Source: Escherichia phage Bp4. Taken from it: DNA of 64,000 nucleotides. Location: the sequence record NC_024142.2, one strand, 5' to 3'. The notes under the pieces were generated by a model. That model was not told the DNA's origin and did no database searches. It saw nothing but the letters and a program-made list of their open reading frames with translations. A program made the position numbers and the translations under genes. Of the stretch, positions 16,355-36,240 are shown in pieces. The stretch's first letter is position 1; every line of letters begins with the position of its first letter.

Positions 16355-19300
16355 TTGAACAGGAAACATGCTATGTCAACATTTGACCGTCTGGCAGGTT
16401 TCGCAGACAGCATCACTAATGCTAAGCAAGTCGATGTCTCTACTGCAACCTCTCAGAAGCAAGCTGCACAAGGGCAAAGCCCTTTCCAATTAACCCCAGA
16501 GAATGCTTACAATCTCCAGACTGGACGAGTAGGTAATCTTGGAATCGGTGCATTCGAACCAGGTTCACTTCAGGCAGATTTCACTCAAGCCTCCCCATTA
16601 GAAATCATTAATAAGTACGGTAATGAGCAAGGTTTACAAATTCTTAATAGCCGAGCTAATGCTGCTGATGTTGTACGTCAGGACTTATCTAAACAACGTA
16701 CTAACGCAGAAGCATTTGGCGATACTCTTTCTGGTGTTGGTCTTGGTGTTGCTAATACCCTTGGGGGCATTGCTGCTCTTGGTACAGGCTTGGTCAATGA
16801 TAATGCCGGGGCATCCATTGCTTCCGGTCTTGACTGGTTGAATAAAGGTGTACACAACCTACAGTCTGATGCACTGAATGCTCGTCGTAATGTAGTACAG
16901 AACCAGAACGTAATATCTGCTCAAGAGAATGAGAAACTCTATAAGCAAGATATTGCTAAAGGAGAAAGTGAACTCGTTGCTTCTCTGTCTCGTATTGGAC
17001 GAGATGCCTATGATTCTGTTGCTAACACCCTGTCTAATGACATGGCTGCTACAGATGGCCTGGCTGAAGGTGTTGGTTCATTCTTTACTGGCGGTCCACT
17101 TATCCGTGGTGTATCTGCACTTGGTAAAGTAATGGTAGGTGGTGATAAAGCTGTTAAGGGTATTACCTTAGCTGCTGAATTAGGTTATCGTCCTGCACGT
17201 ATTGCACAGACTGCTGGTCGTGTTGCTGCACCTGCTATAGCAATTGGTGGTATGGAAGCTGGTGGTGCATACCAACAGACTGCTAATGAAATTATGGAAA
17301 TGCCATTCAGTGAACTGGCTGCTAAATCTCCTGTATACCAACAGCATATTAAAGACGGTCTGTCTCCTGAAGAAGCACGTCGCCAGACTGCATCTGAAAC
17401 AGGTATCACTGCTGCTGGCTTAACTGCTCCAGTTGCTGCTCTTACTGCTCCACTGGTATCCAAGTTTGAACTTAACCCACTTAAGGTAGGTTCACTGGCT
17501 GGTGCTGGTTCTAACATGCTGCGTGAGACTGTAGAAGAAGGTATCCAGTCTGGTACAAGTCAGTTTGCACAAAACAAGGCAATTCAGGGCAATGTAGATG
17601 CTGAGCGTGATTTGCTTAAAGGTGTGGGTGAACAAACTGGTCTGGGTGCATTGTATGGCTTCGGTTCTGCTGGAGTTGCTCAAGCTCCTGGTGCAACTGT
17701 TAAGGCTGCTGGTGCTGCCGTTGGTCCTGCTGTACGTACTACCCTGGCTGGTGCTTCTTTGGCTGGTAAGGCACTAGCAAAAGTAGCTTCACCTATTACT
17801 AACATCCTGGTTCAACGTGGGGAAGAAGTTGCTAAGCGTAATGAACAAGCATCCCCCGTATCTGATGCTACGGTTAACGCTGCTGCACAAGAAGCTACTG
17901 CTCAGGCAGAACAAGCTCAAGCAACTGTTCAGGAAGCAGTGGATGCAATGGATATTTCTCCAGAAGAGAAAGCTGCTGCTACCCAGTATGCTGCTGACTT
18001 AACTCAGGCAATGAAGTTTGACCCGGTAGAATTGGAACAAACTAACCCAGCAATCCGTGAAGCTGTTTCTGGTTCCACTAACCGTGTAGAAGCTATTCAG
18101 AAGATGGCTGACTTGGTTAATACTGCCGAAGACCCTAACGTTCAAATGGAAGCTGCAATCCAGATGTATGACAATATCATGTCTATGGATAGCTTCATTA
18201 ACCGTGACCCGGGTGCTTTGGCTAATCTGGAACAAGGTTCCCCTGCTGCTGCAATCGTAGACCAATTCTCCGGCCTGATGGCTAACGTACAGAATACCCC
18301 TAAAGTACTCCGTGCATTTCGTGCCATCCATTCCATGATTCAGGAACAGGCTGAAGCGGGTAAGCTGAAAGCTACTGAAGAAGCTAATCAAGCCCAAGCA
18401 AACAACATTGCTATGGCTGCTGATGTATCTCCAGAAGTGCTGGATGCAGATTCAGTGAACATGGTTCTGAAACATGCAAGTGAAGGTAAGATTACACTGG
18501 GGAATCGTCAACGTGCTGCCCTGCAATCTGCTGCTGCCTTATTACAGGGTGCACGAGAGTTCGACGCTAAAGCAGAAGAACTAGGCTTACGTCCTCAAGA
18601 TATTGTTAGTAAACAGATTAAAACCGATGAGTCTCGTTCTAATGAAGGACAGTACTCTGCGTTGCAACATGCGAAACGCATTCGTTCTGCGTATAACTCT
18701 GGTAACTTCGATTTGGCCTCCGCTTATCTGAGCGATTTTATGAAGTTCGCCCAGCACATGCAGAATAAGGTCGGAGCGTTGAATGAGCATCTGATTTCGG
18801 GGAATGCGGATAAGAATAAGTCTGTTCATTATCAGGCTCTCTCGCCTTCCCGTGAATGGGTACGTAGTCGTACTGGCCTCGGTGTCAATCCTTACGATAC
18901 CAAGTCTGTTAAGTTTGCCCAGCAAGTAGCACTGGAAGCTAAGACCGTAGCTGACATTGCTAACGCACTTGCTACGGCTTACCCGGAGCTTAATGTTTCT
19001 CATGTGAAAGTTACCTCGTTGGATTCACGTCTGAACAAGCCAGCTGCCCAGGTAGTTAAAGAGTTCCGTCAAGGTGGTCTTGATGCCACTCAGTCTCAAC
19101 AGACTAATGAACCAGTGAATCAGGTTGATGAAACTCCTGCACTAGTGCAAGAGGACACCACTACTGTACAGCCTAAAGATAAACTAGTGGTAGAAAATAA
19201 GACTGCTCCTACTAAAGAGACTAGTCCAAAAGCAGAAGAAGTCTCTACTACTGAATCTGAAAGAGATGCTTATGTGAAAGAAAATACTATTTCACAGGAA

Positions 19301-22300
19301 ATTCTTAATAAGAATGGTGACCGTAGAGAAAGCCCTTGGTTGTTTGCTGATGGTACTGTGGTTGGTTCTAATGGCGACCATATCAGCCTGTCCGACGTAT
19401 TTGGGCATGATGGTTATCGTGATATGTCTCTGGATACTGGTGCTATTCGCTCTACCTTCTATAAAGGTAGTGAGCAACCATTTGTATCTCTGCAACTGTT
19501 TGATAATCAGAAACTGACTGCTGAACAATTCAATACTGTTCAATCTTTCGTTGAAGCAAACAATGCACTGATTCAGGTTGGTGTAGATACGTCTGGGCGT
19601 AATACCAATAATGTTGAGAAGGAAGAAGTATCACTAGCTCAACTGAAAGCAGACTATACCGTCGGTGGTAAACCTCTATCGGAAATGGAAACAGTGTTCC
19701 CTGTTTATAACAATGACAAGACACCGAACCAGTTCATTAAATCATTCTCTCTTCCAGAAGAACCTAAGTCTCGTACCATTGGTTCCGAATCTCCTTTGAC
19801 TGATGTTAAGAAAGCACTGTCTTCTGCTGCTCGCTTTGAAGCATTTACTCAAAAAGAAAATAACGCTCTCACAAGTGATGTGATTAAGCGTTACCAGGAC
19901 TTATTTGAGTTTGGTGAAACTCTGAAGACTACTCTGTCTGACCGTCTGGCTAAGTTCCTTGCTAACAAGAACGTTGGTAAACGTTTTGCGGAAGGTACTG
20001 AGGCTAACCGTTGGGTAGGTGGTAAGTTACTTAACATCGTAGAGAAAGATGGTGACACCTTTAAGTTCAATGACCAGCTATTAGAAACTGCTGTACTTGC
20101 TGGTCTGCAATGGCGATTGACTGCTACACAGAATGCTGCTGTTAAAGACATGAAAGACGTAGCTGCTATTACTGGTGTGGAAGCATCTCTGCTACCAGAA
20201 GGTATTCTGGCTGACTTCGAGAATGCTCAGACCCTGGTTGAAGCTACTAACTCACTAGCTCAAAAGATTGAATCCTATTGGGGTTTGAATCGTAATCCTA
20301 ATGCACCTTTGGGGTATACCAAGGGTATCCCAATGGCAATGGCTACAGAGATTCTGTCTTCCCTTATTGAGATGGGTGAAGTTAAAGAGTCCATGTTAGA
20401 TGTGTCTGAGATTGACCCAGAATCTAATAAGACTGTTGGTCTGTATACCATTGAGAAGCTGGATGATAACGATGCCATTAATAAATTCCCTACTGCTATT
20501 GAGGAAACTGTCCTTTTAGAACCAGTAGAGAAATTGTATCTGGGTGATGACATTCCTTCCGTGGCTCAAACTCAGTTACGTAACCCGGCTGTTAAGAATA
20601 CCCCGGAACAGAAAGCTGCTCTCAAAGCAGAACAAGCTACTGAGTTTCGTGTACATATGCCGATGGTTAATTTCTATGAAGCATTGGGTCGTGACAACAT
20701 TCTGGAGTTAATGGGTGCTGGTGCTCTTAATCCAGAATTGCTGAATGTGAATACTGCTAAGTCTCTGGAAGGTAAAAACCTGTCCGTGTCCATGGCGTAT
20801 GATTCCTTGTTTGGTGTAATCAATCAAATTAAGGAACAGGAGAATGGACTGGATACACCTATTCACTATGGCTACAACATGACCCGTGTAGGTCGTATGC
20901 AGATGCTTGGTAAGAACAACCCACAGTCCAGCAAACTGGTACGTGAAGCAATCTTACCAACCTTCTCTACCATCGACTTGAGTAATGAAAACAGTCAAAC
21001 GTTCTCTGACTTCCAGTTAGGTCTGGCTCAGGCATTGGGCATCAAAGTTCATAAAATGTCCCGTGAAGTTATGTCGGATGAGCTGACTAAAGCTCTGGAA
21101 GGTAAATTGAAACCTGCCGTTGATATGATGGTCGAGTTTGATAAGTCTGGTCACTTACCTGCTGATGCAGTGGATATTCTGAAGACTTCCTTGGGGAATG
21201 ATAAATCATTCGTAGCTCTTATGGCCCTGATGGAATATGCCCGTTACCTGAATAGTGATGATCGTGCCAACTTTAATACCCCACTGTACGTTGAAGCCGA
21301 TGGTGTAACCAATGGACCAATTAACGCAATGGTATTAATGACTGGTGGTAAGTTTACTTCAGACTGGATTAAGAATACTGCTAAGGGTGGTTTGTTCTTT
21401 GGTAAAGCTGGCAAGACTATGAACGAACACCATTCGCACGAGGATAGTGTTGACCTGTATGAAGCATCCACTAATAGTCTGCAACAGGCACTGAATGAAT
21501 TACGTAATAATTACCGTAACAACGTTCCTGTTACGAATCAGATGAAGCATCTTCAGAAGTTAATGGACCTGTTCATTAAAGACTTCAATCTTAATGAAGA
21601 TGGTACTCTGGACCTGAAACGTGGTATCGCTAAAAACCCACTGACCATTACCATCTATGGTTCTGGTGCTCGTGGTATTGCTGGCAAAATGGTAAGTGCA
21701 ATTACTGATACCATCTACGAACGCTTCAGTGACGTTCTACAAGCCCGTGCTGCTGACCCTAGCATTTCCCCAGCTATGGCTATGTTTGGTAAGGAGGCTG
21801 CGTCTGAGGCTGATGCTCAGGCTATGCTGGATACTTTCCTTACTTCTATGGAAGCACTAACTGGTAATGTTCCGGTTATGCGTAAAGGTGAGTTGTCTAT
21901 TCAGCAGGTAGATGGTGCTCTGACTGGTAAGTTAGACCCTCAGAAGTTTACTGTATCCGGTAATGCTCTGAAGAACTTACAAGAGAACATGCTTCATCTG
22001 TTCGTTGAACCAATGCGTACTGGTATCCGAAATACCGTGGGTGAAGGTCTGATGTACTCTACTGAGAACTTGCAGAAAGCTACCCAGATTCAATCTCTGG
22101 TTCTGCAAGACATGTTCCAGCAACGTGTTCAGGAGAAACTGGCAGAAAAAGAAAAAGACCCAACATGGAAGAAGGGTGATTTCTTAACACAGAAAGAACT
22201 GAATGAAATCCAGGCTTCATTATCTCCACTGGCTCCAATGATTGAGACTGGTTCACAGACTTTCTACATTGCTGGTAGTGAGAATACTGATGTTGCTAAC

Positions 22301-25300
22301 CAAGTATTGGCTACCAACTTAGATGACCGTATGCGTGTGCCAATGAGCATCTATGCTCCTTCACAGGCAGGTGTAGCAGGTATTCCATTTATGACCATCG
22401 GTACAGGTGATGGCATGATGATGCAGACCCTTTCTACTATGAAAGGTGCTCCGAAGAATACCCTGAAAATCTTTGATGGTATGAACATTGGTATTAATGA
22501 CATTACTGATGCAAGCCGTAAAGCTAATGAGGCTGTATATACTTCCTGGCAGGGTAACCCTATCAAGAATGTTTATGACTCCTTTGCTAAGTTCATGAAG
22601 AACGTAGACTTCAGCAAACTGTCTGATGAAACCAAACAAGCTATCGCTAAATCTGCACTGGAATACGACCAACGTGAGGGTGCTACTGATGACCTGTTAC
22701 GTGTTGGTGCTGAACAGATTGAACGTAATCTGCGTAACATTGCTCTGGGTGTGGATATTCGTCATAAGGTAATGGACCAGGTACAGGTCACTGTTGACCA
22801 GATGGCTGCTGTTGGTGCTCCTTATGTGAACAACGGTAAAATCTCTCTGGAAGGTCTGACTGTAGACCAGCAAGTAGCTAAGCTGAACGAACTGTTTGAT
22901 GCTGAATTAAACAAGCGTCGTGATGCAGTACGTGCTGCTAAAGCAGAACCAGTGAAAGAAGTGCCAGCAATGGAACAGGTCGGTCGTGTACTGAAGTCTG
23001 GTGTACGTCTGCTGTCTAATGCTGCCATTACTAAACTGGCTAAAGAGATGTCCCCTGAACAACAAGCAGTACTGAAAGAAATACAGAAATCTCTTGCTGC
23101 TAAAGACTATAAGGTTGTTTATGGTACGCCTTCTCAACTGGATGCCTATGCTATTGAGAAGAACATTACTCGTCCAGCACCGGAAGATATTGAAGCTGCT
23201 GAAGCAGGTAATGCATATGGCTGGACTAACTTTGAAGATAAAACCATCTACTTAGTTACCCCTTCCTTAGAGACTCTGGTTCATGAATTGGTACATGCCT
23301 CTACTTTTGAATCTGTACTAGCTCACTACGAGGGTACTCCTAACGAAGCAGTCCAGAATATTGAAGACCTGATGAACCAGTTCCGTGCTCTTGATGTTAA
23401 GAATGAATCTCCGGCAGTACGTGAAGCATATGCCGATGCACTCAATACCATTAATGGCCACTTGTCCAATGGCTTTATTGAACCAGCAATGGCTAAAGCT
23501 GCTGCACTGAATGAGTACATGGCTTGGGGTTTAACTAACCGTGAACTTATAAGTAAGCAGAAGAAAACCACTGCACTTAAAACTATGGTTCAGGCTGTAT
23601 ATGAAGCAATCAAACGTCTGGTATTCGGACGTAAGAAAGCTCCTGCTAATGCAGATGATATGTTCTCTGGCTTACTGTTTAACTCTGCTGTAGTAATGCG
23701 TGGGCAGGCTCCTACTGCTGCTGTAGCCAAAGATACTACCTTGTTCCATAACAAAGCATACGGTGACAATACTCGTCTGGAAGAGCTAGGGAAAACCTTC
23801 GATAAGCTGATTACTAACTACATTGGTTCAGAACCAGTACAGCAAGTAATTCGTAAAGGTAAGTTCTCTGATGCAGTAGTAAAAGCAACTAAAGTAACTC
23901 GTGATGTTCAGGCTCATGGCTTCACCATGAATATGCAGGAACAGCGTCTCTTCACTAACATTGTTGCTGCACTAGCTACTGAGGCTGCTATTAACCCTGC
24001 TGCTATGGCTCGTGCACAGGAATACTACACGCATGTTACTAAGAACCTGACTGTTGAAGCGTTCATGGCTGACCCGGATAGTACTAACCCTGCTGACCGT
24101 TACTATGCACAGCAGAAGTTCGATACCATCATGGGTGCTAATAACATTGAGTTTGATGCACAGGGTCGTTCTTCCTTACTACCTACCTTTGTTGGTCTGG
24201 TAATGGTAAGTGAAGAAGTACGTAAGGTGCTGGCTGATATTTCTGTTATGAAAGCAGATAAAAAATCTGGCAATACTGTTGATGCAATGCTGACTAACAT
24301 CGGTACTGCTGCAATGGCTAGTCTGAATGCTCGTGTAGCAGGTGATACTAAAGCCACTAACGTACAGGAAGGTATGGATGCACTGGCTCAGACAATCATG
24401 CAGACCAGTCTTAACGCAGAATCCTTCTATGATTCCGTTGCTACTCCTACCGGTAATGCTATCGACCGTGCTAACCAGTATTTGGTGGACTCTATTGATG
24501 CATTGTCTACCCGTGCTTTAGAAGGTGCTCGTGAAGTTGCAGCTAATACCAAGAATCCATTGGTCAAAGGTGCTGCTCATGCTGCACAACTGGTAGCTGC
24601 TATTGCTACAGAGAAGAATGGTGCAATCGTAGCCGAAGGTGTTATGGCTGCAATGAACCAGGGTAAAGTATGGCAACCTTTCCATGACCTGGTTAATGAC
24701 ATAATTGGACGTACTAAGAGCAATGCTTCTGTATATGATTTGATTAAAGCAGTACGAGCACAAGTGCAGGCTGACCGTCAACAGTTCCGTGAACACTTGC
24801 CTACCACTATCGCATCCAAGTTCAGCCGTAAACTGACTAATGATGAGTGGAAAGCAATGCATACCGGTATGGGTAAAACTGACTTAGCTGTTCTGCGTGA
24901 CACTATGTCTTTGGATGAAATCCGTGACCTGCTGACTGACCAGAAGAATGTTGACCGTGAGGTTAATAAACTGGAAGCAGATTTGCAGAAACAAGCAGGA
25001 CGTAACTGGCCCCTGATTAACCGTAAATCTAAGCAACTGGCTCAGTATATGATTAACGGTACAGTCGGTAATAACCTGCTGCGTAATGCTACTGCAATTT
25101 CTCGTTTACTGGGTGAACGTAAGACTACACGTTCTGTTGTAGATGTAGCTCAGCTGGATAAACTGATTACCCTGTATGCACTGGAAGCAATGAGTAAGAC
25201 TGACCGTGAGGTGTTATCTTCACTGGCTCAGACAGAAGTTGAAGGCATGGACTTTGCTACTTCTTACCTGGTTGGTCAGCGTAAAGACGAAATGGCTAAA

Positions 25301-27085
25301 GCCAAGTCTGATAGCCGTGCAACCTTGAACCAGTACAAAGGATACATCCCAACTGAGAACAAACAGGGTGTTAACCTGATTGTTGCTGAAGATAATCAGT
25401 TTGCTGATTTGATTGAGAAATCCTATGTACGTCTTGGTACTTATCAGGGTAGCTCTGCTAACCGGGGTCCAGCACGTAGTTACTACTTTGCACCGGTACA
25501 GGCACAGGCTCCGTTCTCACAAGGTATCCTACAGAACGTTCGAAATACTGCTGGTGGTGTAGACCTTGGTACAGGCTTTACGATGGGAACCATGGTAGCT
25601 GGTCGTATTACTGACAAGCCTTCCGTAGACCGTATCACTAAAGCACTGGCTCGTGGTGAACGTGGCAATGAACCACTGCTGCCTGTATATGATGCTAATG
25701 GTAATGTAGTTGCTTATGAGCAATCTATTGACCCTAACATGCTGAAGCACATTGAGGGTGAGAATCATCTTGCTCGTGCAATCGGTGTATGGCGTGGTCG
25801 TCAGGTGGAAGAAGCTAAGGCTCAGCGTTTCAACGATATGCTAATTGAGAACCTGCATAGCATGTATGAGAACGACATTAAGATGTCTGCTTCTAATAAG
25901 TCCCAGTACGTTAACCTTCTTGGTTCTAAACTGGACCCAGTAACTGCCGATGCCCTTAAGCTGATGAACAGTGAAACTCGTCAGAAAGCAGAAAGTCTCT
26001 TTGGTCCAGGTGAATTGTGGGTGCGTCGTGACATGCTTAATGATGCTCTGGGTTATCGTGCAGCTTCTGTAGGAGATGCCTGGTCTGGTAATTCTCGTTG
26101 GTCACCAGAAACACTGGATACCTTCAAGAAAGCTATGTTGGGTGTATTCGGCAACCGTGCCTATAAGTATGTAATGGGTGGTGAGAACCTGGTTCAGAAC
26201 TTAGTTAAAGAAGCTAAGACCCTGATTGTAGTTAAGTCAGTAGTTGTACCTGCTGTTAACTTCCTGGCTAACCTTTACCAGATGGTTGCTCGTGGTGTAC
26301 CTGTTAAGAACATTGCTAAGAGCATCCCACAAAAAACTGCTGAGATTAACCAGTATCTGAAATCTCGTCTGCGTCAGGTAGATGCAGAAGCAGAATTACG
26401 TGCAGCTACTAACCCGAACCAGATTCGTAAACTCAAGGCTGAGATTCAGTCCATCTCTGATAGCCATAAACGTTTGAGTATCTGGCCTCTGTTGGAAGCT
26501 GGTGAGTTCTCTTCAATTGCAGATGCTGGTATTGGCCGTGATGACATCCTGATTACTGAAGGTAAACTCCACGAATACATGGAAAAGCTGGCTGATAAGC
26601 TGCCTAAGTCTGTTCGTAACGCAGGTCGCTATGCACTTATCACTAAGGATACTGCTCTCTTCCAGGGTATTCAGAAGACGGTTGAGTACTCTGACTTTAT
26701 TGCTAAAGCAATCATCTATGATGAACTGACTCAGCGTAAAGGTAAGACTCGTGAAGAAGCACTGGGGCGTGTAACGGAAGAGTTCATTAACTATGACCGT
26801 CTGCCTGGTCGATTCCGTGGGTATATGGAAAGTGTTGGTTTGATGTGGTTCTACAACTTTAAGATTCGTTCTGCAAAAGTTGCAGTGTCCATGATTCGTA
26901 ATAACCCAGTACATGCTGCTATGGCTATGTTGGCTCCAACCCCTACCATGTTTGGTAACGTTGGTCTTCCTATTCAGGACAACATCTTTAGTATTGCTGC
27001 ACAAGGCAATCTTGGTTACTCCTTTGGTTTCGGTCAAGGCTTACGTGCCCACAACCTGAACCCTTGGCTCAACCTTACTAACTAA
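16355..27085 (+). CDS. giant virion-encapsidated RNA polymerase (N4 gp50-like vRNAP)
   Basis: Single uninterrupted 3576-aa ORF (10.7 kb). This size is a hallmark of N4-like phages. Last gene of the late operon, followed by a strong terminator. Confidence 0.85.
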   Translation: MNRKHAMSTFDRLAGFADSITNAKQVDVSTATSQKQAAQGQSPFQLTPENAYNLQTGRVGNLGIGAFEPGSLQADFTQASPLEIINKYGNEQGLQILNSRANAADVVRQDLSKQRTNAEAFGDTLSGVGLGVANTLGGIAALGTGLVNDNAGASIASGLDWLNKGVHNLQSDALNARRNVVQNQNVISAQENEKLYKQDIAKGESELVASLSRIGRDAYDSVANTLSNDMAATDGLAEGVGSFFTGGPLIRGVSALGKVMVGGDKAVKGITLAAELGYRPARIAQTAGRVAAPAIAIGGMEAGGAYQQTANEIMEMPFSELAAKSPVYQQHIKDGLSPEEARRQTASETGITAAGLTAPVAALTAPLVSKFELNPLKVGSLAGAGSNMLRETVEEGIQSGTSQFAQNKAIQGNVDAERDLLKGVGEQTGLGALYGFGSAGVAQAPGATVKAAGAAVGPAVRTTLAGASLAGKALAKVASPITNILVQRGEEVAKRNEQASPVSDATVNAAAQEATAQAEQAQATVQEAVDAMDISPEEKAAATQYAADLTQAMKFDPVELEQTNPAIREAVSGSTNRVEAIQKMADLVNTAEDPNVQMEAAIQMYDNIMSMDSFINRDPGALANLEQGSPAAAIVDQFSGLMANVQNTPKVLRAFRAIHSMIQEQAEAGKLKATEEANQAQANNIAMAADVSPEVLDADSVNMVLKHASEGKITLGNRQRAALQSAAALLQGAREFDAKAEELGLRPQDIVSKQIKTDESRSNEGQYSALQHAKRIRSAYNSGNFDLASAYLSDFMKFAQHMQNKVGALNEHLISGNADKNKSVHYQALSPSREWVRSRTGLGVNPYDTKSVKFAQQVALEAKTVADIANALATAYPELNVSHVKVTSLDSRLNKPAAQVVKEFRQGGLDATQSQQTNEPVNQVDETPALVQEDTTTVQPKDKLVVENKTAPTKETSPKAEEVSTTESERDAYVKENTISQEILNKNGDRRESPWLFADGTVVGSNGDHISLSDVFGHDGYRDMSLDTGAIRSTFYKGSEQPFVSLQLFDNQKLTAEQFNTVQSFVEANNALIQVGVDTSGRNTNNVEKEEVSLAQLKADYTVGGKPLSEMETVFPVYNNDKTPNQFIKSFSLPEEPKSRTIGSESPLTDVKKALSSAARFEAFTQKENNALTSDVIKRYQDLFEFGETLKTTLSDRLAKFLANKNVGKRFAEGTEANRWVGGKLLNIVEKDGDTFKFNDQLLETAVLAGLQWRLTATQNAAVKDMKDVAAITGVEASLLPEGILADFENAQTLVEATNSLAQKIESYWGLNRNPNAPLGYTKGIPMAMATEILSSLIEMGEVKESMLDVSEIDPESNKTVGLYTIEKLDDNDAINKFPTAIEETVLLEPVEKLYLGDDIPSVAQTQLRNPAVKNTPEQKAALKAEQATEFRVHMPMVNFYEALGRDNILELMGAGALNPELLNVNTAKSLEGKNLSVSMAYDSLFGVINQIKEQENGLDTPIHYGYNMTRVGRMQMLGKNNPQSSKLVREAILPTFSTIDLSNENSQTFSDFQLGLAQALGIKVHKMSREVMSDELTKALEGKLKPAVDMMVEFDKSGHLPADAVDILKTSLGNDKSFVALMALMEYARYLNSDDRANFNTPLYVEADGVTNGPINAMVLMTGGKFTSDWIKNTAKGGLFFGKAGKTMNEHHSHEDSVDLYEASTNSLQQALNELRNNYRNNVPVTNQMKHLQKLMDLFIKDFNLNEDGTLDLKRGIAKNPLTITIYGSGARGIAGKMVSAITDTIYERFSDVLQARAADPSISPAMAMFGKEAASEADAQAMLDTFLTSMEALTGNVPVMRKGELSIQQVDGALTGKLDPQKFTVSGNALKNLQENMLHLFVEPMRTGIRNTVGEGLMYSTENLQKATQIQSLVLQDMFQQRVQEKLAEKEKDPTWKKGDFLTQKELNEIQASLSPLAPMIETGSQTFYIAGSENTDVANQVLATNLDDRMRVPMSIYAPSQAGVAGIPFMTIGTGDGMMMQTLSTMKGAPKNTLKIFDGMNIGINDITDASRKANEAVYTSWQGNPIKNVYDSFAKFMKNVDFSKLSDETKQAIAKSALEYDQREGATDDLLRVGAEQIERNLRNIALGVDIRHKVMDQVQVTVDQMAAVGAPYVNNGKISLEGLTVDQQVAKLNELFDAELNKRRDAVRAAKAEPVKEVPAMEQVGRVLKSGVRLLSNAAITKLAKEMSPEQQAVLKEIQKSLAAKDYKVVYGTPSQLDAYAIEKNITRPAPEDIEAAEAGNAYGWTNFEDKTIYLVTPSLETLVHELVHASTFESVLAHYEGTPNEAVQNIEDLMNQFRALDVKNESPAVREAYADALNTINGHLSNGFIEPAMAKAAALNEYMAWGLTNRELISKQKKTTALKTMVQAVYEAIKRLVFGRKKAPANADDMFSGLLFNSAVVMRGQAPTAAVAKDTTLFHNKAYGDNTRLEELGKTFDKLITNYIGSEPVQQVIRKGKFSDAVVKATKVTRDVQAHGFTMNMQEQRLFTNIVAALATEAAINPAAMARAQEYYTHVTKNLTVEAFMADPDSTNPADRYYAQQKFDTIMGANNIEFDAQGRSSLLPTFVGLVMVSEEVRKVLADISVMKADKKSGNTVDAMLTNIGTAAMASLNARVAGDTKATNVQEGMDALAQTIMQTSLNAESFYDSVATPTGNAIDRANQYLVDSIDALSTRALEGAREVAANTKNPLVKGAAHAAQLVAAIATEKNGAIVAEGVMAAMNQGKVWQPFHDLVNDIIGRTKSNASVYDLIKAVRAQVQADRQQFREHLPTTIASKFSRKLTNDEWKAMHTGMGKTDLAVLRDTMSLDEIRDLLTDQKNVDREVNKLEADLQKQAGRNWPLINRKSKQLAQYMINGTVGNNLLRNATAISRLLGERKTTRSVVDVAQLDKLITLYALEAMSKTDREVLSSLAQTEVEGMDFATSYLVGQRKDEMAKAKSDSRATLNQYKGYIPTENKQGVNLIVAEDNQFADLIEKSYVRLGTYQGSSANRGPARSYYFAPVQAQAPFSQGILQNVRNTAGGVDLGTGFTMGTMVAGRITDKPSVDRITKALARGERGNEPLLPVYDANGNVVAYEQSIDPNMLKHIEGENHLARAIGVWRGRQVEEAKAQRFNDMLIENLHSMYENDIKMSASNKSQYVNLLGSKLDPVTADALKLMNSETRQKAESLFGPGELWVRRDMLNDALGYRAASVGDAWSGNSRWSPETLDTFKKAMLGVFGNRAYKYVMGGENLVQNLVKEAKTLIVVKSVVVPAVNFLANLYQMVARGVPVKNIAKSIPQKTAEINQYLKSRLRQVDAEAELRAATNPNQIRKLKAEIQSISDSHKRLSIWPLLEAGEFSSIADAGIGRDDILITEGKLHEYMEKLADKLPKSVRNAGRYALITKDTALFQGIQKTVEYSDFIAKAIIYDELTQRKGKTREEALGRVTEEFINYDRLPGRFRGYMESVGLMWFYNFKIRSAKVAVSMIRNNPVHAAMAMLAPTPTMFGNVGLPIQDNIFSIAAQGNLGYSFGFGQGLRAHNLNPWLNLTN

Positions 27086-27092
27086 ATGAAAA

Positions 27093-27120
27093 AGCCCCTC
27101 TAATGAGGGGCTTTTATTTT
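27093..27120. terminator. bidirectional intrinsic terminator after vRNAP
   Basis: Hairpin AGCCCCTC-TAAT-GAGGGGCT followed by TTTTATTTT; lies between convergent genes. Confidence 0.6.
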
Positions 27121-27638
27121 TACTGAGCTAACACCCAATCTTCTGCTAATACATCTGATTGAGATGGAACCCATGGCATAAACTGGTTATCAACGGTTTT
27201 AATACCCAGCCAATCCCGTTTCTCACAAACGGTATTTTCATGTTTATCCATGGCCCAATTTTCACCAGATACTAAGGTGATATACATTCCTTTTCCGTTC
27301 CAACCTTTACGGGTCATTCTAAAGCCTGATTTGAGAATCTCTACTGCATGACCAAAGGTACAACCTTTTTCTACGTCACGGTATGCAGCTTCGAATGTAG
27401 CTTTAGGTGACCAGCTAATATAGCCACGGAATTGGGGATGGTTGGACTTAGAGTCTGGATACTCGACTAAGTAGCCTTCTTCTAGCGGGTCTTCATCTGC
27501 TGGTACATCCCAACCACGAAGTTTGCAGTATGTTTCTTTGCTCATCGGGAAACCATTTACACACTTGGTTCCAATGTAGTTGGTGAAATGGACTTTAATT
27601 TCTTCTGACATAACTACCTCAAATGAGAAAGCCCTCAC
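27120..27638 (-). CDS. hypothetical protein with DUF2829-like motifs (candidate Tad2-like anti-defence protein)
   Basis: 172-aa ORF. Motifs RKGWNGKGMYITL and C-terminal WVPSQSDVLAEDWVL resemble DUF2829 as recalled; unverified. Confidence 0.45.
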   Translation of the reverse strand: MRAFSFEVVMSEEIKVHFTNYIGTKCVNGFPMSKETYCKLRGWDVPADEDPLEEGYLVEYPDSKSNHPQFRGYISWSPKATFEAAYRDVEKGCTFGHAVEILKSGFRMTRKGWNGKGMYITLVSGENWAMDKHENTVCEKRDWLGIKTVDNQFMPWVPSQSDVLAEDWVLAQ

Positions 27639-27660
27639 TAGGAGGGCTTGTTTTGTTTTG
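27630..27660. terminator. hairpin terminator between minus-strand genes
   Basis: GCCCTC-ACTAG-GAGGGC followed by TTGTTTTGTTTT on plus strand. Confidence 0.45.
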
Positions 27661-27729: not shown

Positions 27730-28122
27730 TCAAATTGTACAACCACCACCATCACAGGTATTGTTTTCTGCAAAGGAAGCCAAAGCTTTAGCAGTCTCTT
27801 CCTTCTCATGCAGTGCCTGACGTAGTAGGTAGCCCTCTAATTCCCAAATCTTATTGAATGCATTTTCATATGCATACTGGCGACCTAACTGCTCATCATA
27901 GATAGTTGGGTCTACGCAAGCAGATACACCTTCAACTTTAAAATTGTTTTCCAGAATGATAACACAATAGGTTACCAGACCCAGGTTAGCCAAATCATCT
28001 GCCGGGAGTGCAGAAGGATCAACGAATGCAGATTTCACTGCATCAGCACCATTAAAATAGTAAACGCTCTTAATCTTAGCTTCGATTGCTTCTTTACTTA
28101 CTGTTGCCATTATTAGCCTCAT
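27730..28122 (-). CDS. hypothetical protein
   Basis: 130-aa ORF; likely start ATG at 28110 preceded by GAGG. Confidence 0.45.
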   Translation of the reverse strand: MRLIMATVSKEAIEAKIKSVYYFNGADAVKSAFVDPSALPADDLANLGLVTYCVIILENNFKVEGVSACVDPTIYDEQLGRQYAYENAFNKIWELEGYLLRQALHEKEETAKALASFAENNTCDGGGCTI

Positions 28123-28198: not shown

Positions 28199-28426
28199 TT
28201 AGTAGCTTTAACGCAGCTAACGAGGCTAGGCCAGTTAACTATTACCACCGGTGCTTGTACCAGCAAACAGGATTGATAGTCCGATAATAGTTAACTGTAA
28301 TTGAGCATTATAGTCTGCTCATACTCACACCGTTAGGTATGTTTTCAATAATTAGAGTGCCGGACTGTCTCACCGGCATTGTCTTTAGAGTGCAATGCAA
28401 TCAGGACTATGTTCTCTATTAATAAG

Positions 28427-28500
28427 TACCCACTACTGGATTTGAACCAGTGACCTTCCGATTATTAGTCGGTTGCTTTCCCCGTCTAAGCTAAGTGGGC
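28427..28500 (-). tRNA. tRNA with apparent anticodon AAU (Ile-like), 74 nt, CCA not encoded
   Basis: Hand-folded cloverleaf on minus strand: acceptor GCCCACU/AGUGGGU, D-stem GCUU/AAGC, anticodon stem ACCGA/UCGGA with loop CUAAUAA, T-stem ACUGG/CCAGU with loop UUCAAAU. Confidence 0.55.
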
Positions 28501-28945
28501 ATAAATGAGTGAGTCATGCCAGACTTTAACTGGCTCCTTCTTCGCAATCCTTACATACCCCTACATAATTATTGCGTTAAGCTTATATTGTTTAAGTTTA
28601 AGTGAAGGCGTTCTTGCTGACTCATAATAGGGTGGGCGTTTGACGAATGACTAGTTCGTTACTACCCGTTTGCCATAAGTACCTGGCGACTTTGGTTTGA
28701 GGCGGGAGTCCGAGTCCTGTACAGCCTTACCGTTCACACATTGGCAGCGTATCTAGAATAGCACTTCCGGCAACTGGATTTAACTGTTACACCCCAAATC
28801 TGGTAGGGGCGTCCAGAAGTCTCATCTGGTACTTACGCCGTCGTATGGTTACGACTTACCCCCATAATCTTTCTAATTCAAAGTAGCACTGCTCCATGTT
28901 TGGCCTTTGAACTCCGGGATGGATTAGTGCAATGCTACTTTGAAT

Positions 28946-29137
28946 TGGTTACCAGTGAGGGATTCGAACCCCCGGTTGGAGTCTATAGCTTACCGCAGCA
29001 GCTCTCCAATCTAGCGGTGTCACACTTAGTCCAAACTTGAACATATCAAGCTATCTCGTGCAACTGATAATTGGTTCCGGCGTCTGGACTCGAACCAGAA
29101 CACTTATGCCGTGCACGACACTAGTACCTACACCGGA
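28946..29137 (-). other. tandem tRNA-like elements that do not fold into a canonical cloverleaf by hand
   Basis: Minus-strand T-arms GGGGG-UUCGAAU-CCCUC and UCUGG-UUCGAGU-CCAGA, each followed by acceptor 3' strand, discriminator A and encoded CCA; matching 5' acceptor strands lie at non-canonical distances (about 124 and 66 nt). Confidence 0.3.
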
Positions 29138-29204
29138 ATTAATTGCCAGGGATTCCACCTGGTCCATCTGTTTTTATAGTCACTCAGATATCGTCTGGAC
29201 TGTA

Positions 29205-29282
29205 GGCATGGGTGGGAATCGAACCCACAAACCATTCAGCACTGTAGCCTCACGCTCTACCTATTTGAGCTATCACACACCA
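29205..29282 (-). other. tRNA-like element (good T-arm and D-arm, imperfect acceptor and anticodon stems)
   Basis: Minus strand: D-arm GCUC-AAAUAGGUA-GAGC and T-arm GUGGG-UUCGAUU-CCCAC; acceptor pairs 6 of 7; anticodon stem pairs poorly. Confidence 0.3.
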
Positions 29283-29572
29283 TTGATTAACTCCCCGTTT
29301 CTAATACACGGACGAGGACACTCCATGGTCGTTTGATAATCAGGACGACTCACTCCCGACTGACGCTTGGCTTATTAGGCTGCCATCAGAACAACATCAT
29401 CGTTTGCATTTATGTTATTGGTTCGTTTCTAAAAAACCGCATAATCGCTTACGAAAACTATCAAAGAGTACACTAAGCACAGGTAGCTACCCTGCCGTCT
29501 TCTCCACCTACACCGGCTACAGTGTAAACCTCCGCACGTTAGCTTAATGTACTCATTGATAGGATGTCAGTA

Positions 29573-29642
29573 GGTCGGGGGCTGGATTCGAACCAGCGAG
29601 AGAAGTAGCGACCATCTGCACATGCCTACGTGCTACCTCGAC
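29573..29642 (-). other. tRNA-like element (about 70 nt, short anticodon region)
   Basis: Minus strand: acceptor GUCGAGG/CCCCGAC (6 of 7), D-arm GCAC-GUAGGCAU-GUGC, T-arm GCUGG-UUCGAAU-CCAGC; anticodon/variable region 2-3 nt shorter than canonical. Confidence 0.3.
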
Positions 29643-30027
29643 CATTATAATAGGAGGGAGGGGACGAGTCCTCCCTTTATACCCTATATTGCATGTAAGA
29701 CCTAACAATTCGATGCTGTAGGTAGCTATGCTATCCGACATTTAACCCAGCCATATAGGGCTTATGTGATTAAAATGCTCAACATTGAGCGGTTAGTTTG
29801 ATAAGGGATCTGAAGCCTTATCCCAAAGATACTAACCTTTGGGATATAGCCTATCATTCAGAAATGGCCCCTATAGGGAGAGGCCATTGATTAACCCGAA
29901 TGTTGCTTTACATTTTCTGTGATAACCCATTCTTAAAATAGTTTACCTGACGGATGGGGGCCACCCCTAGCGTCAGTGCCATACGGCAAAGATTAAGTTA
30001 AGAAAGGTTATGATAGGAGTTCCTATC

Positions 30028-30462: not shown

Positions 30463-30903
30463 TTAACTACGTTTAAGGCCAGCGAACAGTGAAGGCTTAG
30501 TAGCAGGTTTCTCTGCTGGTTCTTCAGCCTTAGCCTCTTCCTGCACAACTTCTTCTTGTGCTTCTGGTTCAGATACTGCTTCTTCTTCAGGTTCCGGCGT
30601 AGAACTCTCGTTCTGACCACCAGTAGAGGTCTGGGTTTCTTCTACCTTTACCTCTTCAACTACTTCTTCCGGCTCTGGTTCTACCGGACGATGTTTAGCT
30701 TCCTGTGGGTTCTTACGAGAACGACGAGTTTTCTTCTCTACTCCCACGGGTGGAGTATCTTCATGAACCTCTTCGTTGATACCAACGGAAGCTGTACCGT
30801 CTGCATTGATGACAATATTGATGTCACCAGCAAGATTGATTTGATCATCGACATAAGCCTGTACAGCAGCTTCTACTTCGGACTGGTTCAAAATGATTTG
30901 CAT
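30463..30903 (-). CDS. hypothetical protein with acidic Pro/Glu-rich C-terminal half
   Basis: 146-aa ORF; structured N-terminus then PEPEEVVEEVKVEE-type low-complexity region. Confidence 0.45.
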   Translation of the reverse strand: MQIILNQSEVEAAVQAYVDDQINLAGDINIVINADGTASVGINEEVHEDTPPVGVEKKTRRSRKNPQEAKHRPVEPEPEEVVEEVKVEETQTSTGGQNESSTPEPEEEAVSEPEAQEEVVQEEAKAEEPAEKPATKPSLFAGLKRS

Positions 30904-30904
30904 G

Positions 30905-31459
30905 TTACGCCTTTATTAAATTAAGGAGGTTTTGGAAAGCTGGGAGATTTACACCAGCATGGATTGCACCGATTGCATCAGCTAAGTGCTCATTCTTATT
31001 CAGAAGTTTGCCCTTCTTATCTGTGAGCCAGTTGGCTTCAGGATAGATGGCATGAGCAGCACGAATCATCGTGTCCTTAGATGCAGTTTTATCACCGACC
31101 AGTGCAAGTTTGTTTTCAATTGGGGATACTTCAAAGATTGGACAACCCAATGCACGAAATGCACCTATTAATCCTACGCATACGCCATAGGATTTCATAC
31201 CGTTAGCAGACTGAGAGCCTACTGGTACTTCTACGAATACTGCTTTAGCAGACCGTAACCATTCCTCACAACCAAGAAACAAATCGTGAGCGGCTTGTAT
31301 ATCTTTGGAGTTGGTTCGAACTTGTTTGTTGTGGTCAACTTCAGTTTGAACCAGTTTAAGTTCGACCTGCTCGAAGACGCCGGACTCAATGTCCAGCATC
31401 CCACGAGCTAAACCCCAATTGCGGAGACTAATGTCTGCACCGACAATTGGGATTTTCAT
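30905..31459 (-). CDS. RuvC-like Holliday junction resolvase (putative)
   Basis: N-terminal IVGADISLRNWGLA and C-terminal HLADAIGAIHAG resemble the RuvC catalytic motifs (IDPG...G and DAADALAIA). Confidence 0.5.
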   Translation of the reverse strand: MKIPIVGADISLRNWGLARGMLDIESGVFEQVELKLVQTEVDHNKQVRTNSKDIQAAHDLFLGCEEWLRSAKAVFVEVPVGSQSANGMKSYGVCVGLIGAFRALGCPIFEVSPIENKLALVGDKTASKDTMIRAAHAIYPEANWLTDKKGKLLNKNEHLADAIGAIHAGVNLPAFQNLLNLIKA

Positions 31460-32262
31460 TAACGTTTACCGAACAGTGATTTACCACTAGCAGGAGTAGT
31501 ACCAGTGCCAGCACCTGCACCTGGTTTAGGAGGCAAGCCACCTTTACCATTACCACCAGCAGAACTCTTAGTCTTGTCACGAGTTTTGCCTTTGTTCTTT
31601 TCCAGCCATGCTGCATAGAATACAGCCAGTTCTGGGGTTAGTTCTTTTTCAGCCTTCTCTGCTTCCTGAGCCTCGACGACTGTGACCAGCAGTTCCGGGT
31701 GAAACACTTTCTGAATCTCGTTTACTTCACGAGTTTCGTCAGAGTCTACATAACCGTTGTCGCCTTTAACCTGCTTGTTTTCCAGAACTTTTTCCAGAGC
31801 GAAGGTAACAGTCTGGCCTACCAGGTCAACTGGAACCATGACAGATTTATTAACTTCTGCTTTAGCGTCGTAGTCGTAGACTTTAACAATCTTCTCTTCG
31901 AAGTCTGCTTCAGGCAGTTCAGTACCAGTAGCCATCAGCATCATGTCGTTAATGACAGTGTAGCCAGGCAGGAAGTACTCTTTACCATTTTTCTCGTAAG
32001 TCGGCTTGTTGCCTTTAGCATTACCAGAAGTGAAGTACACCTGAGCACGGAACTCGCCAGCAGGCACGCCATCAGAGTTTTTCAGGTCTTCAATAATTAA
32101 CTGCATCCAGTCTGCACCAGAATCAGCTTTGCCTACGTAAGCTACTTTTACAGTACCAGTGTAGATATCGGTTTCTTTTGCACCGAAGCCACCACCACCC
32201 AGAGAGTCTTTAGCAGCTTCAACGTTTTTGGTTTTTTCTTTCAGATTACTGAACAATGACAT
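31459..32262 (-). CDS. putative single-stranded DNA-binding protein (N4 gp45-like by size and position)
   Basis: 267 aa with Gly-rich tail; assigned by synteny only, no classic OB-fold motif recognised by eye. Confidence 0.35.
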   Translation of the reverse strand: MSLFSNLKEKTKNVEAAKDSLGGGGFGAKETDIYTGTVKVAYVGKADSGADWMQLIIEDLKNSDGVPAGEFRAQVYFTSGNAKGNKPTYEKNGKEYFLPGYTVINDMMLMATGTELPEADFEEKIVKVYDYDAKAEVNKSVMVPVDLVGQTVTFALEKVLENKQVKGDNGYVDSDETREVNEIQKVFHPELLVTVVEAQEAEKAEKELTPELAVFYAAWLEKNKGKTRDKTKSSAGGNGKGGLPPKPGAGAGTGTTPASGKSLFGKR

Positions 32263-32301: not shown

Positions 32302-33054
32302 TTAAGCGTAGTATTCAGCCAGGTGGTCTAAGAGTTTCTGGGCATCGTTATCAATGTAAGTCTCGGACTTATCGAACATACCCATAGGAGAACGAAGTCG
32401 TTTACCAACAGACTTCTTGGTTGGACGGGTCTGGAATACATGTTTATAGCCTAAATCACGTTCTTCCTCCGTAATTTCAAGCATCTTGTTTCCATACTTC
32501 TCCAGTTCTTTAATGTCTACACGTTCTGCGTAAACCACTGTAGAGAAGTAGGCTTCAAGCCCGTTATTCTTCAGAGAGCCTTTCACTGGGATGAACGTTT
32601 TCATCACACCAGCAGCTTCATCCAGTTCGTCTTTAGCATGAGCAGTAATGATTACTGGCTTACCAAACTTAACGACTTTTTGTTGCAGCAGTATCTTAAA
32701 GAACTGTGCAAAATCCCCCCATGCCTTTTGCGTGTTTGCAGAAGGCAGAACATACTGGGATTCCAGCATATCCATCATAAAAGTTGCTGAGTCAATGATG
32801 ATACCATCAACATCATCTGCCATTTCTCCACCAGGAGATGCAACATCAAATGCTTCCCAGATTTGGTATGGGTCTTCGATGTTGTAGGTATTGAACTTGT
32901 TACGGAAAGGTAGACGTTTACCTGCCTCAGTGTTCAGATAGAGCCAGCGTTCCTGGTTCCTGATGTTACGCAGTGATGCTGATTTACCACTCGCTGAGAA
33001 TCCTGCAATCAGGATTAGCTGAGTGTTCATATCATTGGGAATTACTTCGGACAT
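32302..33054 (-). CDS. P-loop NTPase
   Basis: Walker A motif GFSASGKSAS near N-terminus; 250 aa. Confidence 0.5.
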   Translation of the reverse strand: MSEVIPNDMNTQLILIAGFSASGKSASLRNIRNQERWLYLNTEAGKRLPFRNKFNTYNIEDPYQIWEAFDVASPGGEMADDVDGIIIDSATFMMDMLESQYVLPSANTQKAWGDFAQFFKILLQQKVVKFGKPVIITAHAKDELDEAAGVMKTFIPVKGSLKNNGLEAYFSTVVYAERVDIKELEKYGNKMLEITEEERDLGYKHVFQTRPTKKSVGKRLRSPMGMFDKSETYIDNDAQKLLDHLAEYYA

Positions 33055-35320: not shown

Positions 35321-36240
35321 CGCTTAACCTGCCCCTCCACGACCTTGATAGCACCCTTGCCACCTTTTTCAGCCATGAAGATACGAGCAGATGCCATATC
35401 GTCAAATTTTTTGGTACTTCTGGCTCCAGGTACATCTACCTTAGAAGCATCAGAGAAGTATTTGAACTGTGGCTCTGTTCGCCACAACTCCTCATCAGTA
35501 CATTCAGGAATTTCCTCTTCTGGTGCATTCCAGTACTTCTCAATGAGGTGAATCTTCTCTTCTACCCAACGTTCAGTCTTCTCAACAGATAGCAACGGAA
35601 TATCCTTATGCATAATACGATTAGCAGGATAGTTTGGATTGCTATTAGCCATATGCTTCATGAAGTCAGTGAAGATGTAGTTAATACGGATTACATCCTC
35701 GGTAATGATGTCGTTGTGAATCCAACGGTACAAGCTGCCTTGCATCTTGTGTTCATCATCACGGGAACCAGCAACCCAGGAATAGGTTGAGGTAGACTTA
35801 AAGTCCTGCAACAGACCTTCTGTTACGATGTCGAACTTACCACCGATAGTCCAACCCTTAACTACCCTGGTTCCACGCTGTTCAATGTAGATTGGGATAA
35901 GGTCAGGGTTAGCATCAAAGTCTGCTTTGGTTGGGTTAATAACTACTGCATCAATTACTCGTTGAGGATAACCCAACTTCTTCAATGCAGTCTTATGACC
36001 CAGCTTCCAGGCTTTCTCGATAGAATCATGTAAACCAGTACCCATTGATGTGGAGACGAAATCCATAACATCAATTGACTGATCACTTAAATCTACACGA
36101 TGCTTCATGACGATTTGCTTAATGGGCTTAAGCAATGTGGTAACAGACAGATACTTAGGGTTATCTACATAGTCATAATCATCCGTTACAAGCCATACAG
36201 CTAGTGCAAGACTAACGTCGTGTTTGTTGGTAAGTTTCAT
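35260..36240 (-). CDS. PD-(D/E)xK-type nuclease with C-terminal Cys cluster (Cas4/RecB-like exonuclease, putative)
   Basis: Motif GGKFDIVTEGLLQDFKSTS (D...D/E-x-K) and C-terminal RCLYCPVASICKQ. Confidence 0.45.
   Translation of the reverse strand: MKLTNKHDVSLALAVWLVTDDYDYVDNPKYLSVTTLLKPIKQIVMKHRVDLSDQSIDVMDFVSTSMGTGLHDSIEKAWKLGHKTALKKLGYPQRVIDAVVINPTKADFDANPDLIPIYIEQRGTRVVKGWTIGGKFDIVTEGLLQDFKSTSTYSWVAGSRDDEHKMQGSLYRWIHNDIITEDVIRINYIFTDFMKHMANSNPNYPANRIMHKDIPLLSVEKTERWVEEKIHLIEKYWNAPEEEIPECTDEELWRTEPQFKYFSDASKVDVPGARSTKKFDDMASARIFMAEKGGKGAIKVVEGQVKRCLYCPVASICKQRERYFPS

Follow-up and report, generated by a model that had tools for sequence, protein, structure and literature searches.

The gene studied here lies on the minus strand of a 64,000-nucleotide stretch of Escherichia phage Bp4 (sequence record NC_024142.2; this whole stretch is referred to as the window), which on sequence grounds belongs to an N4-like coliphage. 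Its product is a protein of 163 amino acids with two domains. The C-terminal half is assigned with high confidence to the Tad2 family of anti-defence proteins, as shown by its profile match, fold and pocket residues. The N-terminal half is homologous to the N-terminal domain of the ryanodine-receptor-like (RyR) Tad protein of another N4-like phage. The sequence is not new, the DUF2829 or Tad2-like assignment of its orthologs is already in databases, and the protein adds a member, as yet uncharacterised, to a family already known. What is added here is that its N-terminal domain represents a separate, large family. The protein and its parts are as follows; residue numbers throughout refer to the 163-residue product (27120-27611).

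27120..27611, minus strand: coding sequence of the two-domain protein, 163 residues, stop codon at 27120-27122; ortholog of phage N4 gp49.
27372..27584, minus strand: N-terminal conserved domain, unnamed, residues ~10-80, with a beta-beta-alpha-beta-beta-alpha order; homologous to the RyR Tad N-terminal domain.
27129..27359, minus strand: Tad2-like domain (PF11195 / DUF2829), residues 85-161, the C-terminal half of the protein.
W104, N105, I137, T139, D141, W147, S150, S152 and D153: predicted binding site for an ADP-ribose signal, mapped from the SPO1 Tad2 contacts.

The C-terminal half scored 82.5 bits with the Pfam profile PF11195 (Tad2-like; gathering score 25; E = 3.2e-23), and the match spans positions 2-72 of the 73 in the profile. 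A phmmer search of the PDB sequences returned MoTad2 (9EIB, E = 7e-17), SPO1 Tad2 (8SME, E = 3e-15), HgmTad2/AcrIIA7 (E = 2.6e-10) and SptTad2 as well, the identity to SPO1 Tad2 being ~46% over 78 aligned query residues. The full-length AlphaFold2 (AF2) model, calculated from an alignment of 42 homologues, has a mean predicted local distance difference test score (pLDDT) of 89.9. In its Tad2 half, helices are located at residues 86-94 and 151-155, and strands at residues 99-101, 110-114, 134-138, 144-146 and 159-161. All 24 Foldseek matches to the PDB at E ≤ 0.001 are Tad2 structures with 40-44% identity, and the target-normalised TM-score reaches 0.86, to SPO1 Tad2. The initial annotation of this locus, made from the DNA letters, had named the DUF2829/Tad2 family on the strength of short motifs and proposed a Pfam search and a structure prediction as checks. 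Both checks bear this assignment out, as do the phmmer matches and the conserved ligand contacts described below.

In SPO1 Tad2, the signalling molecule 1''-3' glycocyclic ADP-ribose (gcADPR) is held by W25, N26, W73, D79, T78, I63 and T65, and residues D67, H71 and S76 coordinate water in the ligand site (bioRxiv 10.1101/2023.05.01.538930). In the HMMER alignment, SPO1 residues W25, N26, I63, T65 and D67 fall on W104, N105, I137, T139 and D141 of the Bp4 protein, and H71, W73, S76, T78 and D79 fall on M145, W147, S150, S152 and D153. Thus, eight of the ten gcADPR-contact residues are identical, one is replaced conservatively (T78 to S) and one is changed (H71 to M). W104, N105, T139, W147 and D153 are invariant across 42 two-domain homologues, and S150 is found in 41 of them. 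Mutants W21A/N22A and S90A/T92A/D93A of HgmTad2 are reported to bind gcADPR less well, and the residues equivalent to W21/N22 and S90/T92/D93 are conserved in the Bp4 protein.

The open reading frame (ORF) 27120..27638 named in the initial annotation was confirmed on the minus strand of the window, together with the two motifs on which that annotation relied, RKGWNGKGMYITL (residues 101-113) and the C-terminal pattern W147-x-P149-x3-D153-x-LAEDW159. It is not a chance ORF, because the PF11195 match is accompanied by 2269 homologues of the 163-residue protein at E ≤ 1e-5. The product length of 172 residues given earlier needs correction. The likely start is ATG 27611, and GTG 27638 is unlikely to be used, because the GTG sits inside the terminator-like hairpin of the upstream gene, a GAGGT precedes the ATG, and close homologues are 160-167 residues long with an alignment that begins at that methionine. 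Expression timing is inferred; a scan for sigma-70 promoters gave sites not in excess of shuffled controls. The flanking signals are listed below.

27616..27620, minus strand: GAGGT resembling a Shine-Dalgarno site, read from the sequence and separated from ATG 27611 by 4 nt on its upstream side.
27629..27649, minus strand: hairpin that resembles a terminator and has a T-rich tail, in the gap separating the Acb4-like from the Tad2-like gene; it encloses GTG 27638.
27090..27115, no strand assigned: bidirectional intrinsic-terminator-like hairpin with an 11-bp stem and T runs on both strands, between the Tad2-like gene and the virion RNA polymerase (vRNAP) gene.
16355..27085, plus strand: vRNAP gene, 3576 residues as listed from TTG, convergent with the Tad2-like gene.

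The giant ORF ending at 27085 has counterparts in phages PD38, ECBP1 and N4 annotated as virion RNA polymerase, and it is followed by the bidirectional terminator, so that the earlier placement of the gene next to the terminator of a late operon holds. Over 1.2 kb around the gene, the identity is 99.9% to Escherichia phage PD38 and 99.3% to ECBP1. The 163-residue protein shares 100% identity with a 'hypothetical protein' of PD38 and 89% with N4 gp49. The orthologs in ECBP1, PhAPEC5 and PhAPEC7 bear the RefSeq label 'DUF2829 domain-containing protein', and the ortholog in Shigella phage Moonfish is annotated as a 'Thoeris anti-defense 2-like protein'.

The N-terminal domain gave no match in a Pfam search at E ≤ 1 and none in a profile search of the PDB sequences at E ≤ 10, and the N-terminal half was without a significant match in the Foldseek search against the PDB. 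Foldseek searches of BFVD with this domain found mainly its own family (best E from 5e-8 to 5e-5), and the weaker matches were uninformatively named. The family is large. Among 1.84 billion cluster representatives (clustering at 50% identity), a profile search yielded 2680 members at E ≤ 1e-3, of which 1333 remained at E ≤ 1e-10, and tblastn located the domain in 123 INPHARED phage records, with Escherichia, Vibrio, Klebsiella, Pseudomonas, Clostridium and others as hosts. The consensus reads YIGTK-x5-PM-x4-YN-x2-RGW-x-VPADE-x4-GYLVEY-x-DGG-x2-N-x5-GYISWSPK-x2-FE-x-AY, with the conserved motifs IGTK, PM, Y-x3-RGW-x-VPADE, GYLVEY and GYISWSPK-x2-F. In phages with hosts from Vibrio to Clostridium, seven residues of the domain (Y, W, G, Y, W, S, P) do not vary and seven more (K, R, N, R, E, D, N) hardly vary. 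K16, Y28, R32, W34, Y64, W67 and K70 of the Bp4 protein are among the conserved positions. An AF2 model of the domain based on an alignment of standalone homologues is compact (pLDDT 93). The monomer model features four strands and a low-confidence N-terminus, which is compatible with a domain swap. The domain is net acidic, with an isoelectric point (pI) of 4.9.

A relative with a solved structure is found in a preprint on N4-like phages. In gp68 (RyR Tad) of Pectobacterium phage vB_PatP_CB1, the C-terminal ryanodine-receptor-like domain acts as a sponge for gcADPR, and for the N-terminal domain the authors report a 'fold of unknown function' and, in the crystal, a domain-swapped dimer, with beta1 inserted into the partner and completing a five-stranded sheet; residues 1-86 alone showed no activity against type I Thoeris (bioRxiv 10.64898/2026.06.04.730250). 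The profile of the Bp4 N-terminal domain was aligned by hhalign with residues 1-70 of CB1 gp68 at a probability of 96.7% (E = 4.1e-10, 33% identity, 70 columns). The motifs K-x5-PM, EGYLV-x-Y and SWSP-x2-VF are common to both, and the BFVD Foldseek search also matched the TG1 homologue of gp68. Because of the hhalign match and the common motifs, the Bp4 domain is attributed, at the level of sequence, to the family of the RyR Tad N-terminal domain. The copy in CB1 has diverged and has no RGW-VPADE segment; hence, its inactivity is weak evidence against an autonomous function of the canonical form.

Two other anti-defence proteins were considered as possible identities of the N-terminal domain. 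Tad3 was set apart by description: the proteins Tad3-8 are said to act by binding ThsB or effector proteins, and the N-terminal domain is treated as distinct from Tad3 since the preprint that annotates Tad3 in this hotspot gives the domain as a 'fold of unknown function'. Lockin, the beta-rich protomers of which form hexamers, was ruled out by distribution only. It is reported to be absent from INPHARED genomes, in contrast to the 123 INPHARED records with the N-terminal domain.

The partners of the N-terminal domain were counted with a Pfam scan of the best 150 of the 2680 representatives, with the following result.

PF21825 (crAss001_48; Sequestin): 41 of 150.
PF11195 (Tad2-like): 39 of 150.
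PF13876 (Phage_gp49_66; Acb4): 15 of 150.
PF24729 (Acb2/Tad1 hairpin): 6 of 150.
WDGH, AP2 and HNH: 1 of 150 each.

PF13876 corresponds to Acb4 (bioRxiv 10.1101/2024.12.30.630793) and PF21825 to Sequestin, a sponge of 3' cyclic ADP-ribose (3'cADPR) (bioRxiv 10.1101/2025.07.12.664507). Single-linkage clustering of the partner extensions merged them into one network on account of the multi-domain proteins, and per-family counts with local hidden Markov models (HMMs) and jackhmmer were used instead. By these counts, Tad2, Sequestin or Acb4 is present in 92 of the 150 proteins, and in ten proteins two of the three occur together. With Acb2/Tad1 included, about two thirds of the 150 carry a sponge domain. 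The N-terminal domain is in the N-terminal position in 119 proteins, internal in 13, C-terminal in 11 and standalone in seven. When the seven standalone proteins and the six with an Acb2/Tad1 hairpin are subtracted from the 58 without Tad2, Sequestin or Acb4, ~45 proteins with unrecognised extensions of 40-160 residues are left. Some of these extensions resemble degenerate Tad2 or helical Sequestin-like segments, and one carries WDGH. These ~45 proteins are candidates for new sponge partners.

Sequestin itself came out of a search for unknown Pfam families that occur in fusions with Tad2 or Acb4 (bioRxiv 10.1101/2025.07.12.664507). That Pfam-based screen was blind to the N-terminal domain, because the domain has no Pfam model. 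More than 100 entries of the Sequestin homologue table of the same study (bioRxiv 10.1101/2025.07.12.664507) contain the motifs of the N-terminal domain, and these motifs are absent from the tested Sequestins A-I.

Standalone genes for the domain encode 73-90 residues, and some are located in contexts without a nearby sponge. Copies of 73-79 residues were found at four loci (L006 4001-4515, L005 3042-5120, L012 1929-2590 and L004 2504-2740). The contexts observed are listed below.

Erwinia phage phiEaP8: standalone copy in the same slot adjoining vRNAP, no Tad2.
Metagenomic locus L006: standalone copy with a 94-residue Acb4 gene 3 nt downstream.
Other standalone copies: between genes for ribonucleotide reductase and for glutaredoxin/ThyX.
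Other standalone copies: following a dUTPase gene.
Other standalone copies: beside genes of unknown function.

These mixed contexts suit an accessory partner of sponges as well as an independent function. The view of the N-terminal domain as a large unnamed family that is fused, as a hub, to no fewer than five families of sponges is a lead and not yet a finding.

It is probable, by analogy with characterised relatives, that the Tad2 half sequesters a signal derived from Toll/interleukin-1 receptor (TIR) proteins and so blocks Thoeris, and that the N-terminal half dimerises as an accessory module. Tad2 proteins assemble as homotetramers with two ligand pockets at the interfaces of non-dimeric protomers, and residues 85-161 of the Bp4 protein would form a homotetramer as SPO1 Tad2 does. 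The pockets between protomers would hold the second messenger that Thoeris TIR proteins make, a derivative of ADP-ribose. The most likely ligand would be 1''-3' gcADPR (3'cADPR); histidine-ADP-ribose (His-ADPR) or N7-cADPR may be bound instead. W104 and W147 are predicted to stack on the ligand and N105 and D153 to make polar contacts, while T139, D141, S150 and S152 would line the pocket. Sequestration would keep the Thoeris effector from ever being switched on, and the phage could replicate. The N-terminal half most likely forms a domain-swapped dimer, given its homology with the RyR Tad N-terminal domain, and may serve as an oligomerisation or accessory module for sponges, or possibly as a binding module itself.

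Several points weigh against this mechanism. The water-coordinating H71 of SPO1 Tad2 is replaced by Met or Val in the Bp4 protein and its two-domain relatives. One of the five Tad2 homologues in the founding study failed to inhibit Thoeris (bioRxiv 10.1101/2023.05.01.538930). None of the characterised Tad2 proteins that were checked carries the N-terminal domain, and no protein with its motifs was found in the supplements of the study on the functional diversity of Tad2. A literature search returned no experimental report on this protein, N4 gp49 or their orthologs. Finally, the specificities of Tad2 homologues vary widely and include 3'cADPR, His-ADPR, N7-cADPR, cyclic UMP and CMP (cUMP/cCMP) and cyclic dinucleotides; therefore, the ligand is not readable from the sequence, and for this reason the full mechanism is held with less confidence than the family membership.

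This breadth of specificity leads to a different proposal, in which the physiological target of the Tad2 domain is a messenger other than that of Thoeris, such as cCMP/cUMP of Pycsar or the cyclic dinucleotides of CBASS. Individual Tad2 homologues act against different combinations of Pycsar, CBASS and three Thoeris types, cGG and cGAMP are bound by HgmTad2 and SptTad2, and Pycsar and CBASS systems from E. coli have been used in the Tad2 diversity studies. However, cyclic-dinucleotide binding by these dual sponges needs 35-41 inserted residues between beta2 and beta5, which form the corresponding pocket. The equivalent Bp4 segment (residues 115-133) is 19 residues long, compared with 24 in SPO1 Tad2, and SPO1 Tad2 bound none of the cyclic dinucleotides of HgmTad2/SptTad2. 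The gcADPR pocket, on the other hand, is intact and invariant in the clade, and the site is reported to be conserved in ~99% of Tad2 proteins. A target outside Thoeris is consequently considered unlikely. Far less probable still is an AcrIIA7-type anti-CRISPR function, which some annotation pipelines imply: the orthologs in phages Mimir124 and 24-32N are labelled 'anti-CRISPR protein', and AcrIIA7 is a DUF2829 protein that was matched here at E = 2.6e-10. Type II-A CRISPR-Cas9 is not normally carried by E. coli. Moreover, the anti-Cas9 activity of AcrIIA7/HgmTad2 and other Tad2 homologues was not reproducible in vitro or in vivo, and the founding Tad2 paper describes DUF2829 proteins as anti-Thoeris rather than anti-CRISPR (bioRxiv 10.1101/2023.05.01.538930).

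The role of the N-terminal domain leaves more room for an alternative, one compatible with the Tad2 half acting as a sponge. The domain may be an autonomous anti-defence module, either a new sponge or a binder for a further signal; it would then be a seventh or further sponge family, or a universal 'sponge partner' that alters how sponges work or are sensed, and not a passive dimerisation tag. We regard both the autonomous module and this wider role as tentative suggestions, doubtful on present evidence. They are favoured by the size of a family with no Pfam model or solved PDB homologue, by its extreme conservation from Vibrio to Clostridium hosts, and by the standalone copies, some with no sponge nearby. 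The domain is fused to Sequestin, Tad2, Acb4, Acb2/Tad1 hairpin and RyR Tad domains, and fusion to known sponges is the same logic by which Sequestin was discovered. Its short length and its dimeric state, expected by homology, match the general traits of sponges in the literature, and Acb4-Tad2 and Acb4-Sequestin fusions provide a precedent for two-in-one inhibitors. In opposition to this, the gp68 fragment 1-86 was inactive against type I Thoeris, though it represents a divergent copy; the acidic character of the domain (pI 4.9) differs from the positively charged pockets of known sponges; and the standalone copy with an Acb4 gene 3 nt downstream fits an accessory subunit equally well. Sequestration by the Tad2 half, with the N-terminal half as an accessory dimerisation module, is retained as the preferred reading.

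The Tad2-like gene shares its strand with the replication genes; it follows directly on an Acb4 gene, at the vRNAP end of a hotspot. According to the preprint, the anti-signalling hotspot of N4-like phages extends from the primase to the vRNAP gene and contains homologues of Tad2, Tad3, Acb4, Sequestin, Bes1 and Bes2 (bioRxiv 10.64898/2026.06.04.730250). The window has this primase-to-vRNAP layout, with the vRNAP gene as one boundary. The presence of Tad2 in this hotspot is already listed by that preprint (bioRxiv 10.64898/2026.06.04.730250). Related phages show insertions/indels or additional small ORFs at the locus, as expected for a hotspot, in agreement with the 'variable region' of the initial annotation. 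The features between the Tad2-like gene and the replication genes are given below.

27730..28122, minus strand: gene of the Acb4 family of anti-CBASS sponges (PF13876 Phage_gp49_66, E = 1.7e-25), N4 gp48 ortholog with 47% identity to N4 gp48.
28426..28500, minus strand: tRNA-Ile (ARAGORN; Rfam RF00005, 64.8 bits).
29202-29280, minus strand: tRNA-Cys(aca), called by ARAGORN only, below the Rfam tRNA gathering score, unusual anticodon.
29572-29643, minus strand: tRNA-Ala(cgc), called by ARAGORN only, below the Rfam tRNA gathering score, unusual anticodon.
30463-30903, minus strand: acidic 146-residue protein at the N4 gp47 position in the hotspot, with a long low-complexity E/P/K/V-rich tail; no Pfam match.
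30905-31459, minus strand: 184-residue N4 gp46 ortholog; no Pfam match.
31459-32262, minus strand: 267-residue protein at the position of the single-stranded DNA-binding protein (SSB); ECBP1 annotates SSB beside its gp46 ortholog.
32302-33054, minus strand: AAA_24 (Sak4-like) protein.
33111-35003, minus strand: primase-like protein.
36237-36734, minus strand: 165-residue ORF with HNH_3 and AP2 domains, probably a homing endonuclease, among the replication genes.

The two sponge genes, Acb4-like and Tad2-like, are adjacent, and each is bracketed by terminator-like hairpins. The Acb4 assignment was made on the Pfam match and orthology to N4 gp48, because the upstream protein gave no match among the PDB sequences; its true start may be an internal Met at 28110. 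N4 gp48 is Acb4 and is necessary and sufficient to trigger Panoptes (PMC12657230). As to the tRNA cluster mentioned in the initial annotation, tRNA-Ile stands with its Rfam score of 64.8 bits, and the other two calls, made by ARAGORN only, do not; the 'cluster' may be one real tRNA with degenerate or false calls. The ~1.5 kb at 28500-30000 contain no convincing ORF. The protein encoded at 30905-31459 is probably orthologous to Bes1, described in phage Ab09 as a protein for broad evasion of signalling. It also shares ~40% identity with proteins from Migulavirinae phages of Pseudomonas, some of these proteins being labelled 'RuvC-like Holliday junction resolvase'.

The Tad2 assignment explains part of how N4-like coliphages, therapeutic candidates included, may evade TIR-based Thoeris immunity. 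Together with the adjacent Acb4 gene, the Tad2 gene marks an anti-signalling locus, which could in turn leave the phage open to defences that use decoy signals, Panoptes for example, which N4 Acb4 is shown to trigger (PMC12657230). The N-terminal domain is very abundant, strongly conserved and unnamed, and partners at least five known sponge families. If it were functional alone, it would represent a new family and a simple bait for further sponges, and if the domain were indeed an autonomous module, the ~45 of 150 proteins with unannotated extensions would make up a list of candidate new sponge families.

Among known systems, SPO1 Tad2 (Gp34.65; PDB 8SME/8SMF/8SMG) and MoTad2 (9EIB) belong to the same PF11195 family as the Bp4 protein and share its predicted fold, with helix alpha1 followed by an antiparallel sheet, and the pocket pattern W/N ... 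W-x-P-S-Q-S/T-D. The beta2-beta3 insertion is short in both SPO1 Tad2 and the Bp4 protein. Characterised Tad2 proteins have a single domain of ~89 residues, whereas the Bp4 protein adds an N-terminal domain of ~80 residues and a linker of ~8 residues. It further differs from SPO1 Tad2 in the replacement of H71 by Met, in its Gram-negative enterobacterial host and in being known from sequence. AcrIIA7/HgmTad2 (PDB 8KBI-8KBM) has the same DUF2829 fold and gcADPR-site residues, but its 41-residue insertion provides a second pocket for cGG/cGAMP that is absent in Bp4, where the segment has 19 residues. Fusions of a sponge with a second small domain in phage anti-defence loci are represented by Acb4-Tad2 (Pasteurella phage Pm86), Tad2-Sequestin and Acb4-Sequestin (Ab09 gp59); in these fusions both halves are proven sponges, while the partner domain in Bp4 is a candidate module. 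The C-terminal sponge of RyR Tad (Pectobacterium phage vB_PatP_CB1 gp68) is an all-helical, dimeric ryanodine-receptor Repeat12-like fold and not Tad2, and its N-terminal domain is 33% identical to that of the Bp4 protein and is without the RGW-VPADE segment. Nevertheless, both proteins consist of a homologous beta-rich N-terminal domain followed by a gcADPR-binding domain (predicted in the case of Bp4), and both are encoded in the same hotspot of N4-like phages.

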